A stretch of DNA of 40,000 bases. Source: Helicobacter sp. 12S02232-10 (lineage in GTDB: Bacteria > Campylobacterota > Campylobacteria > Campylobacterales > Helicobacteraceae). The translations under genes were made by a program, and so were the position numbers. How positions within the stretch are numbered: the first letter of the stretch is position 1; every line of letters begins with the position of its first letter. The DNA lies in NCBI RefSeq assembly GCF_002272895.1, contig NZ_MLAQ01000001.1:109800-149799 (forward strand), written 5' to 3'. Below the pieces are notes generated by a model. The model was not told the origin of the DNA, made no database searches, and saw nothing but the letters and a program-made list of their open reading frames with translations. Below are positions 35,097 through 36,200 of this stretch, piece by piece.

Positions 35097-35130
35097 AATA
35101 CTTACGAAAACCATAATTTTCAAACTTTTT
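35097..35130 (+). promoter_or_regulatory. dif-like junction site (attP-type: degenerate left arm plus canonical centre and right arm)
   Basis: ACTTACGAAAA-CCATAA-TTTTCAAACTT. The centre, right arm and 17 bp of right flank are identical to site 1. The left arm differs at 2 of 11 positions. Confidence 0.65.
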
Positions 35131-35366
35131 ATTTTATCTTGAAAAAAAATTATTGACACAAATTATATCAAAGATGTTTGTGAGTATTTTGATAAACCAA
35201 ACCCTTTTATAAAAGATGATAACAGCTTAGAAGCGGTTATAAAACAACTAAACGAGGTTATCAATGAAGTTTATTGCCTTCCATTACATTCTAAATTACT
35301 GGGGGCTTTGATTTTCCAAAAGAGAGTATTTGCAATGATGATTTATACAAACACGGATTAGTAGCT

Positions 35367-35657
35367 TTGTTTGCTTATAAAACCATCCATATAGTTTGCA
35401 TCGGTTGCACAAATATGACTTTTGAAAAGTTTAGAGAAATCATTTTACAACCAACTAAAAAAAGAGAAGCCACGATTAAAAGATATTTCAATGCATTCCA
35501 TCAAAAACACGATGACAAAGTTTTAAGAACTCAAGAGATACAAGCCTTAATTAAGCACCATAGCAAAATCTACCCTCAATTTTTAGAGCTTTTTGAAACC
35601 TTGATACAATCGGATAAGCTAGATAAGTTAAATAATACTAGGATTTTGAATGTCTGA
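35367..35657 (+). pseudogene. 5'-truncated copy of the 159-aa phage ORF
   Basis: Nucleotide-identical to 26557..26827. An in-frame TAA lies upstream and the only start is a TTG. The C-terminus is altered by a deletion junction. Confidence 0.6.
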
Positions 35658-35694
35658 AATTTATAACAATAAAGAAACTCAAACAGCAAGCTAA
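35650..35694 (+). pseudogene. frameshifted remnant of the 97-aa membrane-protein gene
   Basis: Same ATG context as 27154. A 46-bp deletion (27188-27233) shifts the frame to a stop after 14 codons. Confidence 0.6.
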
Positions 35695-35840
35695 AAAAGG
35701 CACTCGAGATTAAAAAAGAGCTTGAAAAAGAAGAGGACCCCACTCAAAATCAAGATTCAGAAGTGCAAACCCCCGCTTTTGAAGATAGTAAAGCCCCTTT
35801 TTTTATTTTAGGAGCTACATTTTATGGGAATGGTCAGAGT

Positions 35841-36094
35841 TTGCGTGGGTTGTTGTTGTGAATGTTATTATAAAAAATGTGTTAAAAAACCCCATAAAAG
35901 GGGTTAAATATCATTCATAAGGAAGGAGGGGCTAACCCCTCTTCATCCTAAAAATAATTTCTACGCCAAATATTTTAAATTTGATGTATAATTCTTTTAG
36001 GATTTTATGATGCTTTTCCATCATCAATCCTTTCAATGATATTGCCCCCCGCTACAATCGAGGGGCGATAAAATTATACACTACTTTCCTTAAA
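35841..36094. repeat. direct 254-bp exact copy of 33737..33990 (third copy of the structured module)
   Basis: No mismatch seen by eye at offset 2,104 bp. It includes the Cys-peptide 3' end, the terminator, three hairpins and the TATAAT. Confidence 0.9.
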
Positions 36095-36200
36095 AAAATT
36101 AATTTAAAAGTAAATAATTATTTAACTTATATTTCAGATATTGAATTTTTAAAGCACTATTTTACAGACTTTTTAATTCCTTAAAATAATTTGCCTTATT

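Follow-up and report, generated by a model that had tools for sequence, protein, structure and literature searches.

A patchwork of prophage fragments beside a double jelly-roll prophage at the difH site of a reptile Helicobacter

In Vibrio, phages of several kinds are integrated at the chromosomal dimer-resolution site by the host Xer machinery, without a phage integrase. CTX-type inoviruses, RS1, TLC and dif-type double jelly-roll (DJR) prophages lie there as direct tandem units with a hybrid dif site between them. CTX prophages need a downstream tandem element to terminate the replicative synthesis of phage DNA. The RS1 satellite of CTX is a packaged element found in many strains; it has an origin, att sites on both sides, and genes for replication, integration and regulation that are all intact. 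Miniphages, such as those of f1, and defective-interfering genomes are free replicons selected to keep an origin and a packaging signal. The dif-type DJR phages of Vibrio are Xer-exploiting elements (IMEXs), 25.6% of which are found in tandem. Such arrays are common in that genus, and IMEX (inovirus) elements in a degraded state, with only part of the phage kept, have also been reported there (PMC12715192).

The window analysed here is a 40,000-nt stretch of DNA from Helicobacter sp. 12S02232-10, a reptile Helicobacter. Its locus of interest reads, in order, xerH, difH, a 9.9-kb DJR (PRD1/PM2-like) prophage, a second dif site, a mini-element and an aminotransferase gene. As in the Vibrio arrays, integration employs the host Xer system at the dimer-resolution site without a phage integrase, and the units stand in direct tandem with a hybrid dif site between them. 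However, XerH/difH in this Helicobacter host is a single-recombinase system, and the mini-element is a seven-fragment patchwork, 100% identical to its neighbour, with one att site and no defined satellite genes (rstR, rstA, rstB, rstC). We propose, with a probability of roughly 0.55, that the mini-element is a relic, not autonomous, which deletions have left of a second prophage copy in an IMEX tandem array at difH.

The prophage and its integration site

The array is delimited by the following features.

24042 to 25112, minus strand: xerH, the single Xer recombinase of the host (Pfam Phage_int_SAM_6 and Phage_integrase)
25143 to 25173, plus strand: difH-1 (attL), TTTAGTTATGAAAA CCATAA TTTTCAAACTT
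25174 to 35096, plus strand: the full 9.9-kb DJR prophage, helper or sibling of the mini-element
35097 to 35127, plus strand: dif-2, a hybrid site that has its left arm ACTTACGAAAA from the right end of the phage (D9 repeat, 46 nt, 96%)
36201 to 37403, minus strand: aminotransferase, the native right-hand neighbour of difH-xerH; stop codon at 36201-36203

XerH is 64% identical to H. pylori XerH, and its nearest relatives are from reptile Helicobacter. The difH site lies directly upstream of xerH, in agreement with the published difH sites, which adjoin this gene (PMC2731167). The dif core occurs twice in the window, against 0.03 expected copies, and is the same as the dif core of Helicobacter sp. 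11S02596-1. No third dif-like site was detected in the window with up to 3 mismatches allowed, and dif-2 is the only att site in contact with the mini-element. In three related loci (L009, L010 and L013) the aminotransferase orthologue is located 139-572 bp from xerH with only dif in between, and for a related phage an occupied site (L014) can be paired with an empty one (L013). Since related strains have the aminotransferase directly beside difH-xerH, the locus is, as judged from comparative sequence, an IMEX tandem array. The insertion is at the chromosomal dif used by the host Xer recombinase, and among the phage ORFs scanned against Pfam, PHROGs and NCBIfam, which did not include every small ORF, no integrase was found; only the host xerH matched. 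The full phage carries dif-like sites at both ends (dif1 and dif2), whereas the mini-element has dif2 at its left end only and is thus a truncated array member, not a complete IMEX.

The prophage contains a wHTH replication gene, ORF92, ORF159, a first structured element (IR-L), the structural module, a second structured element (IR-R), an iteron-like region and ORF65. An AF2 model of the major capsid protein (MCP; pLDDT 82.6, pTM 0.80) resembles PRD1 P3 (E = 4e-19), the STIV MCP (TM 0.74) and PM2 P2 (E = 1e-12) in Foldseek comparisons with known folds, and the Pfam profile P2_C matches 7 of the 18 members of the MCP family, members of which are also matched by P2_N. The packaging ATPase, of the FtsK/HerA genome-packaging type, matches the STIV2/STIV B204 packaging NTPase (E = 2e-7) and phrog_2666 (1e-22). 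With both a capsid and a packaging ATPase of the expected kind, the helper is, according to these models and profile matches, a DJR membrane-containing phage. It shares with the PM2/PRD1 lineage the DJR capsid fold, the FtsK/HerA-type ATPase, many small membrane proteins and a genome of ~10 kb. It differs in that the phage collection held no sequence match to it, by DNA or protein, and in that its structural module is flanked by twin inverted structured elements. Furthermore, PM2 has a rolling-circle replication protein, whereas that of the helper is of the wHTH type and resembles DnaD-like and replication-initiator PHROGs. A search with the MCP returned two Logan contigs, both holding the structural module only. 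ORF159 has a homologue with 34% identity in the related phage of L014. We found no report, in the literature searched, of a PRD1/PM2-lineage phage using single-recombinase XerH/difH in Helicobacter, and this setting outweighs the mini-element itself in importance.

Block structure and origin of the mini-element

The mini-element spans 35128-36094. Exact-match extension resolved it into seven collinear blocks, amounting to 972 non-redundant nt that match the neighbouring prophage at every position; BLASTN and repeat analysis (families D1-D5, D9 and D20) agree with this structure. Its parts, and the sequence to its right, are as follows.

35128 to 35144, plus strand: block 1, an exact match to the phage left end, 25174-25190
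35144 to 35172, plus strand: block 2, equal to 26052-26080 (29 nt); intergenic, upstream of ORF92, contains TTGACA
35173 to 35295, plus strand: block 3, equal to 26181-26303 (123 nt); ORF92 codons 31-71, without the start codon
35296 to 35637, plus strand: block 4, equal to 26486-26827 (342 nt); ORF159 codons 45-158, out of frame with block 3
35630 to 35683, plus strand: block 5, equal to 27134-27187 (54 nt); RBS and first 11 codons of ORF97
35683 to 35823, plus strand: block 6, equal to 27233-27373 (141 nt); interior of ORF97, frameshifted
35824 to 35840, plus strand: diverged patch at J6 (17 nt), which supplies the ATG of the truncated Cys-rich peptide
35841 to 36094, plus strand: block 7, equal to 33737-33990 (254 nt); 3' end of the Cys-rich gene and the complete structured element
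36095 to 36197, plus strand: diverged right end, whose homologue is phage 33991 to ~34100 (roughly 65-80% identity, with indels)

At the left end the exact match extends over 39 nt (35106-35144 and phage 25152-25190), the dif core included. About 89% of the distal phage copy is gone through six internal, strictly collinear deletions of about 861, 100, 182, 306-313, 45-46 and 6363 bp. Junctions J1 to J5 show microhomologies of 1, 0, 0, 8 and 1 nt, and J6 has the diverged patch instead. The J1 deletion takes out the replication gene together with an inverted dif-like site, site B, that lies beside attL in the helper (repeat I11) and is conserved in L014; the deletion at J4, across the 8-nt microhomology AAATAATA, takes out IR-L. 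Helper region 34086-35092 is also missing, including the only iteron-like repeats (34496-34601, repeat I15).

No phage gene is left intact in the mini-element, judging from its reading frames, as every coding block kept is truncated or out of frame. The ORF92 piece, which has no start codon, is fused out of frame, and ORF97 is frameshifted after codon 11. A 96-codon ORF with a TTG start (35367-35657, BKH41_00745) corresponds to the C-terminus of ORF159 plus 6 new terminal residues, and the Cys-rich peptide is reduced to 27 codons (35824-35907). Neither ORF159 nor the 96-aa ORF matched a family that would indicate its function in Pfam, PHROGs, NCBIfam or PADLOC, and the single-sequence AlphaFold model, with a pLDDT of 40.7, was unusable.

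The diverged sequences at the two sides of block 7 are informative. Over its last 12 nt the patch is homologous, in frame but diverged, to phage 33725-33736 (M-V-R-V versus M-V-I-T), and no other copy of the 17 nt exists in the window; we therefore read the patch as diverged homologous coding sequence and not as a templated insertion. The diverged right end reaches almost to the aminotransferase stop codon. The 254-nt block is thus bordered on either side by another, diverged but homologous allele, so that the precursor was a mosaic sibling of the phage or was recombined later. For the same reason gene conversion is likely for the 254-nt block. It was rejected as the sole source of the perfect identity of the left-hand blocks, where identity reaches the junctions without flanking homology and blocks are as short as 17-29 nt.

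These results bear out part of the original prediction, which had described the arrangement of blocks and deletions, the absence of substitutions within blocks, the 96-codon and 27-codon reading frames, a complete structured-RNA module, and a right end derived from or recombined with a diverged relative. It had also noted the 17 diverged nt, which are real, but had missed their homology to the phage. Its argument against slow decay by point mutation stands as well, with seven deletions and no substitution in 972 nt.

Based on this anatomy, the relic could have arisen as follows. The phage family, which brings no integrase, integrates at difH beside xerH and produces the order dif1 - phage - dif2 seen at the locus. 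Two phage genomes would then have been brought into tandem, either one after the other, whichever came first, or together as a dimer, the second being a sibling of the neighbouring DJR phage or a tandem copy that recombined later. The distal copy is now without its right end and its right att site, and almost none of the native spacer between dif and the aminotransferase is left. Without a right att site, excision by XerH is impossible and the mini-element is fixed beside dif. The internal deletions may reflect a burst of forward template switches in one or a few replication or repair episodes (copy-choice or MMBIR-like), which fits the mini-element better than independent slow events. Finally, the diverged flanks of the 254-nt block indicate homologous exchange with a related allele, which would be unsurprising, as short recombination tracts have been reported for Helicobacter.

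The resemblance to FoSTeS/MMBIR-type rearrangements lies in the several breakpoints within a short stretch, the microhomologies of 0-8 nt and the cluster of changes at one junction. On the other hand, every jump is forward and collinear, inversions and duplications are absent, the changes clustered at J6 look like in-frame homologous divergence and not like polymerase error, and for Helicobacter the mechanism is hypothetical. Helicobacter is not known to have classical end-joining; junctions with 0-1 nt of microhomology would then need a replicative mechanism, itself hypothetical here. Aberrant XerH-mediated deletion at pseudo-dif sites was also considered and set aside: by eye, TGAAA(A)-like motifs occur near J1 and J5 only, which is unconvincing in DNA of 70% A+T. 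The deletion-relic reading itself meets a difficulty, as seven deletions with zero substitutions are atypical of neutral decay; if substitutions and indel events are assumed to occur at a ratio of ~10:1, several substitutions would be roughly expected in 972 nt. On its own the mini-element is a curiosity, a prophage stub in which deletions have run far ahead of point mutations. Its structure suggests that bursts of template switching can take apart a tandem prophage copy, and that such stubs become fixed beside dif when the outer att site is lost.

The structured element

The one unit of the mini-element that is still complete is a structured element. It may continue to be expressed; the remainder is presumably inert. 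The element and the two helper copies are laid out below.

35884 to 36078, minus strand: structured element of the mini-element, candidate gene for a ~185-nt RNA, read on the minus strand
36073 to 36078: its -10 box, TATAAT
36044 to 36067: hairpin 3
35999 to 36031: hairpin 2
35926 to 35941: hairpin 1
35884 to 35903: terminator hairpin and U-run
26803 to 27035, plus strand: IR-L, the second helper copy (I1, 102 nt at 94%; I2, 88 nt at 77%), deleted in the mini-element
33780 to 34034, minus strand: IR-R, the helper copy exactly matched by the mini-element

The element folds with an MFE of -71.3 kcal/mol (z = -6.97), and compensatory changes are observed at 14 of its 29 pairs across 6 copies. Its conserved U.G pairs are compatible only with the minus strand, the orientation found in the mini-element. 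With a covariance model, the copy in the mini-element scores 101 bits and IR-L 102 bits. The element has no Rfam family, the only match being a terminator-like one to SpF51, which is below threshold with 26.9 bits where the gathering score is 50. Taken together, its sequence features suggest that it is probably an RNA of ~185 nt, provided with a -10 box and a terminator of its own. The predicted transcripts would extend from 36066 to 35884 in the mini-element and from 33962 to 33780 for IR-R, both on the minus strand, and would start at about 26875 on the plus strand for IR-L. Two inverted copies are kept in three phage lineages, and of this conserved pair the mini-element provides a natural minimal copy of one member. 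It is not a native host feature of the dif-aminotransferase spacer, since it is absent from the empty sites L010, L011 and L013.

A smaller relic of the same element was found between dif and the aminotransferase of another species, Helicobacter sp. 11S02596-1, without a second dif. It retains the promoter and two hairpins but not hairpin 1 and the terminator. As this relic too is att-less beside dif, the decay of phages of this group to att-less stubs recurs. A covariance-model search of all loci retrieved returned no further relics, only the training copies and the mini-element.

The survival of a complete element here and of a partial one in 11S02596-1 could mean selection instead of chance. 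The stub might then be a domesticated regulatory unit that expresses the ~185-nt RNA, and perhaps the C-terminal domain (80-96 aa) of ORF159, and acts on the helper or on incoming relatives, for example by conferring superinfection immunity, by regulating the dosage of late genes or as an antisense to the 3' end of ORF159. The identical 254-nt block, which spans exactly the terminator through 16 nt past the -10 box, would be accounted for, as would the conservation of the inverted pair with its compensatory changes, the retention of the promoter in the second species, and the complementarity between the outer part of the helper copies and the ORF159 3' end (I1, I5, I6). We nevertheless find such domestication doubtful. 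The 11S02596-1 relic is decaying, as its missing hairpin and terminator indicate, just two relics are known and their elements point in opposite orientations, the tail of the mini-element has diverged in the very stretch that would pair with ORF159, and the same rationale is not applicable to the other blocks kept.

Assembly, satellites and miniphages

The mini-element is known from one genome only, a short-read draft built from 300-nt MiSeq reads with SPAdes 3.1.1, in a study with an average coverage of about 212x (PMC5566214). The region sits inside a 311,820-nt contig. Because no sequence of k-mer length is shared at the junctions of the mini-element, there must be reads that span them; a single read can cover J1-J3, or J4-J6, and most of the structure is therefore directly read-supported. 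However, the exact 342-nt repeat is longer than the reads, and would admit one alternative assembly path. In that alternative, a mis-threaded repeat or a mixed population, the junctions would be real in the DNA, which would consist of a chromosome with dif1 - 25174..26827 - J4 - J5 - J6 - element - aminotransferase and of an 8,810-nt circle with dif2 - J1 - J2 - J3 - 26486..35096. There is no independent read-based assembly of the strain on record, and its proteins have NCBI sources only. This arrangement seems rather unlikely all the same, as paired reads at this average coverage normally resolve a 342-nt repeat and the circle would have to exist without a replication gene. The concern about an assembly chimera is reduced, not removed. 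Homologous recombination between the two 342-nt copies would yield the same two forms.

Besides the deletion relic, we considered that the mini-element might be a selected, helper-dependent element of the DJR phage, either a regulatory RNA stub or a defective-interfering mini-genome copied or packaged with helper functions. If true, no such satellite-like partner would have been described before, either among membrane-containing DJR phages or in the XerH/difH system; we judge it unlikely.

The second form, close to what the original prediction had raised in comparison with RS1/CTX and with miniphages, holds that the mini-element originated by copy-choice during phage replication, integrated via a dif-like attP, and is mobilised and packaged by the helper, in the manner of RS1/CTX or f1 miniphages. 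Its collinear multi-deletion structure without point changes, its start exactly at a dif site and the known Vibrio IMEX arrays with satellites are consistent with such an origin. Like RS1, it is a shorter phage relative in tandem at dif, identical in the shared sequence and without structural genes. Like a miniphage, it derives from its helper by multiple internal deletions without point changes, and a copy-choice origin is plausible. However, none of the RS1 features (intact genes, origin, flanking att sites, recurrence, packaging) holds, or could be shown, for the mini-element, which has no functional replication or regulation genes of its own, no iteron-like region and no family matches. 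In contrast to miniphages, it is chromosomal and unable to excise, having no right-hand att site. It has lost the replication gene, site B and the candidate origin region with the only iteron-like repeats. Its right end is diverged sequence joined to a host gene, not the phage right end. Its 1 kb is also far below the ~10-kb capacity of such a capsid, a point of uncertain relevance for a phage with a packaging ATPase. The same architecture did not recur in independent genomes: none of the databases searched contained a second instance, the 96-aa product came from just one contig in a set of 5.8 billion protein clusters, a search with ORF159 returned only the product of the mini-element, and there were no matches either to pattern scans based on the MCP alignment, in genome, viral and metagenome collections, or when two conserved stretches of the structured element were looked for as exact DNA. 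The mini-element is real, but its reading as a satellite or mini-genome is not supported, and mobilisation by the helper is quite improbable.

The inverted site B had also raised CTX-like single-stranded integration, which we rejected, as the DJR capsid and packaging ATPase indicate a dsDNA phage and complete dif1 and dif2 already permit ordinary excision. That the mini-element serves in cis, as a downstream second copy of a replication or termination signal for the helper as for CTX, is very improbable: helper and mini-element do follow each other in direct orientation and site B by attL resembles the paired inverted attP sites of CTX, but the helper is of the dsDNA type and flanked by complete dif sites available for Xer excision, no HUH rolling-circle initiator is recognisable in it by Pfam or PHROGs, and the HYH-like motif of its replication protein is not conserved in the L014 homologue.

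With 1 kb of perfect direct repeat adjoining it, the helper is predicted to give rise to recombination products that would lock its early genes into the chromosome.

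Block anatomy and coding content of the mini-element

The helper prophage (25174..35096) lies between two dif sites that enclose an element of 9.9 kb; no third dif site was found in the window at ≤3 mismatches.

The dif sites flanking the helper
difH-1 (dif1), 25143-25173, immediately upstream of xerH, TTTAGTTATGAAAA-CCATAA-TTTTCAAACTT
dif-2 (dif2), 35097-35127, left arm altered (ACTTACGAAAA)

Between dif-2 and the aminotransferase gene (36201..37403, minus strand) lies a deleted second copy of about 1 kb, the mini-element (35128-36197). Exact-match extension, with which BLASTN and a repeat finder agree, resolves it into seven collinear blocks comprising 972 non-redundant nt with 0 mismatches to the helper, and the block structure given in the original prediction is thus correct almost to the base. 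No further copy of the phage or mini-element region was found elsewhere in the window.

Blocks of the mini-element and their helper counterparts (exact-match extension)
Block 1: 35106-35144, helper 25152-25190
Block 2: 35144-35172, helper 26052-26080
Block 3: 35173-35295, helper 26181-26303
Block 4: 35296-35637, helper 26486-26827
Block 5: 35630-35683, helper 27134-27187
Block 6: 35683-35823, helper 27233-27373
Block 7: 35841-36094, helper 33737-33990

The six internal junctions, with microhomology and what each removes
J1, 1 nt: inverted dif-like site B and the wHTH replication gene
J2, 0 nt: the start and first 30 codons of ORF92
J3, 0 nt: the ORF92 end together with codons 1-44 of ORF159
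J4, 8 nt: the left copy of the structured element
J5, 1 nt: 45-46 nt within ORF97
J6, a 17-nt patch instead: the 6.4-kb structural module

Nothing in the right end corresponds to 34100-35096, so that ORF65, the att site and the sole iteron-like repeats (34496-34601) are gone. Translation of the remainder revealed an ORF92 fragment without a start codon and fused out of frame to ORF159, an ORF97 that stops after 14 codons, and a Cys-rich membrane peptide deprived of its hydrophobic half. Of ORF159, only the C-terminal part can still be read, starting at a TTG (96 aa) or an internal ATG (80 aa). None of these products matched a family in Pfam, PHROGs, NCBIfam or PADLOC.

In the helper, the right-arm repeats at 34496-34601 are both direct and inverted (GCGTCTTTTAAGTCTTAA twice, and a 27-nt inverted arm pair) and lie in a non-coding stretch of ~600 nt; this cluster, missing from the mini-element, is a candidate origin or operator. 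The intact Cys-rich peptide (38 aa, 33687-33803) has a hydrophobic N-terminus followed by CVGCCCECYYKKC and a basic tail. It closes the structural operon, is conserved in both relatives of the helper (Logan contigs L001, about 6860-6990, and L002, 6584-6697), and the terminator of the antisense structured element sits within the 3' end of its gene.

Origin of the mini-element

No integrase of its own was found among the helper ORFs scanned, and we therefore regard it as an integrative element exploiting Xer (IMEX). The locus is most simply explained as a tandem IMEX array in which the distal member was taken apart. Whether the precursor of the mini-element integrated first, or second into dif2, the map is the same. 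The outer att site having been lost, XerH would be able to excise the helper (dif1 x dif2) and never the mini-element, which would explain why the stub persists. An att-less relic in Helicobacter sp. 11S02596-1 fits such a survivorship effect. A degraded member of an IMEX tandem array is a known kind of object, of which the present instance is new: degraded IMEX (inovirus) relics have been described in Vibrio, where dif-type double jelly-roll (DJR) phages also occur, 25.6% of them in tandem arrays (PMC12715192).

Seven deletions with 0 substitutions are not typical of gradual decay, and the earlier suggestion that the mini-element did not arise by slow decay is supported. This burst-like pattern is unusual. 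The strictly forward, collinear jumps and the microhomology of 0-8 nt suggest that templates were switched serially, during a single replication or repair episode or a small number of them. The left-hand blocks contain no diverged residue, even in pieces of 17 and 29 nt, and their deletions therefore occurred in sequence identical to the present helper. The right-hand side differs. The last 12 nt of the J6 patch encode an in-frame M-V-R-V versus M-V-I-T in the helper; 5 of these 12 nt are changed and none of the adjacent 254, and beyond 36094 identity falls abruptly to about 65-80%, with indels. With diverged sequence on both sides, block 7 is a helper-type island inside another allele, as short homologous exchange between tandem copies, or with imported DNA, would give. 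Recombination with a diverged relative, previously proposed from the right end, is thereby supported and extended to J6.

The genome of the strain, the rhinoceros-iguana isolate Helicobacter sp. 12S02232-10, was assembled by SPAdes 3.1.1 from 300-nt MiSeq reads (PMC5566214). J1-J3 (152 nt) and J4-J6 (186 nt) each fit within one such read, and since the junctions share no k-mer-sized sequence, they are not de Bruijn mis-joins and junction-spanning reads must exist. The sole place where the path relies on read pairs is a perfect direct repeat of 342 nt (26486-26827 and 35296-35637). Threaded differently there, the reads would give a chromosome running dif1 - 25174..26827 - J4-J6 - element - aminotransferase, plus a circle of 8,810 nt. 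Both molecules are the exact products expected of homologous recombination between the 342-nt copies, and both forms may therefore coexist in culture. The repeat should permit RecA-dependent deletion of dif2 and the entire late region, which would lock the helper early genes in the chromosome and release the 8.8-kb circle.

The proposal that the mini-element is a satellite or mini-genome was not upheld: it has one att site only, no replication gene or candidate origin and no intact genes, and it did not recur in any database searched. For each feature testable from sequence, it lacks what defines RS1-like satellites and miniphages. A CTX-like dependence of the helper on the mini-element as its downstream partner is unlikely: the helper, apparently a dsDNA phage, encodes a packaging ATPase, shows no conserved HUH motif and has a complete dif site at either end.

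A twin structured element flanking the structural module

Block 7 holds the one unit still complete in the mini-element, a structured element of ~200 nt, which the helper carries as two inverted copies that flank the structural module and both read towards it.

Helper copies of the structured element
IR-L, 26803-27035, plus strand
IR-R, 33780-34034, minus strand

The repeat finder aligned the outer 102 nt of the two copies at 94% and the inner 88 nt at 77%. Both Logan structural-module contigs, L001 (1-99 and 7090-7184) and L002, start and end with the same 30-31-mer, inverted, and the related locus L014 (78-183) carries the left copy. The copies share an invariant TATAAT and three hairpins, and 14 of the 29 predicted pairs stay paired through changes on both sides among six copies. 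Read from the opposite strand, the U.G pairs conserved in hairpins 3 and 2 would become C.A. The element is accordingly read as -10 TATAAT, hairpin 3, hairpin 2, hairpin 1, followed by AACCCCUUUUAUGGGGUUUUUU. On this strand, the mini-element copy has a folding energy of -71.3 kcal/mol (z = -6.97). The element is therefore probably an RNA gene of ~185 nt, or a promoter with a structured leader (in the mini-element about 36066 to 35884, minus strand). Rfam contains no family for it. Over its outer 40 nt, IR-R is complementary to the ORF159 3' end.

A covariance model of the core matches the three window copies, L014, both L001 ends and a copy in Helicobacter sp. 11S02596-1 (62 bits). The latter is a fragment of ~110 nt (L009 9672-9779, minus strand; promoter, hairpins 3 and 2) that takes up the greater part of the 177 nt separating difH from the aminotransferase gene, with no second dif site. 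The model found no element at the empty sites of 12S02634-8 (L010), 11S03491-1 (L011) and L013; the element is therefore phage-derived, and its interpretation as a host feature was rejected. The conserved twin elements are among the more interesting items in the context of this finding. In 11S02596-1, the sequence to the right of dif (TTTTTTATTTT) is similar to the left end of the phage in the window.

The helper phage and its insertion site

The helper ATPase matches the STIV B204 packaging NTPase, family members of the capsid candidate match Pfam P2_C and P2_N, and an AlphaFold model of the capsid protein (18 homologues, pLDDT 82.6) matches PRD1 P3, STIV MCP and PM2 P2. Together, these matches indicate that the helper is a DJR, membrane-type dsDNA phage of the PRD1/PM2/STIV lineage. 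A 324-aa capsid-like protein and the 96-aa ORF of the mini-element are annotated proteins of the strain, on a 311,820-nt contig. Neither the phage collection nor IMG/VR contained a match for the helper; its only two relatives, with capsid proteins 81% and 76% identical, come from Logan assemblies. The literature searched contained no report of a DJR or dif-integrating phage in Helicobacter, nor of a dif-type DJR phage with XerH, and a DJR phage exploiting the single-recombinase XerH/difH system of reptile Helicobacter is another of the more interesting contextual items.

XerH (24042-25112) is 64% identical to its H. pylori counterpart and contains Phage_int_SAM_6 and Phage_integrase domains. 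The site at 25143-25173 fits published difH sites, which are linked to xerH in most epsilonproteobacteria (PMC2731167). In L009, L010 and L013 (a Logan assembly), 139-572 bp containing dif separate xerH from the aminotransferase orthologue. In L014, which has the same XerH protein as L013 and comes from a different sample, the left part of a related phage takes its place (replication protein 34% and ORF159 homologue 34% identical, then the structured element); the structural module of this phage is contig L002, from the same sample. It follows that phage and mini-element together form an insertion between dif and the aminotransferase gene. The phage-homologous tail of the mini-element stops only a few bases short of the aminotransferase stop codon, and the native spacer and right-hand att site are deleted.

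In L011 (5606-9437), a restriction-modification pair (D12-class methyltransferase, AlwI-family endonuclease) lies between the aminotransferase gene and difH; foreign DNA in this Helicobacter group thus has a general landing site in the dif flank. Site B (25226-25250; GAAAA-CTAGAG-TTTTCATAACTAAA) is a further dif-like site, in inverted orientation, located 58 nt inward from the phage left end; its good arm matches the chromosomal dif left arm exactly over 14 nt. Its counterpart in L014 (1469-1495, minus strand) has the same place upstream of the replication gene but is oriented directly with respect to the dif of that host. Candidate roles for site B are a CTX-like paired attP, an alternative attP for inverted-dif hosts and a XerH-binding regulatory site. 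L013 (2321-2460) and L014 (1-1632) form a natural empty/occupied pair. After dif and a shared TTTTT tract, ~19 nt of the L014 lysogen resemble the L013 empty-site flank (5 of 19 positions differ), suggesting that the phage attP region mimics, or once captured, the host flank. Relative to xerH, difH points one way in the window, L009 and L011 and the opposite way in L010 (9837-9861), L013 and L014, and in L015 and L016 (9953-9978) the entire xerH-dif module is flipped relative to the aminotransferase gene; these varying orientations imply repeated inversions at or around dif.
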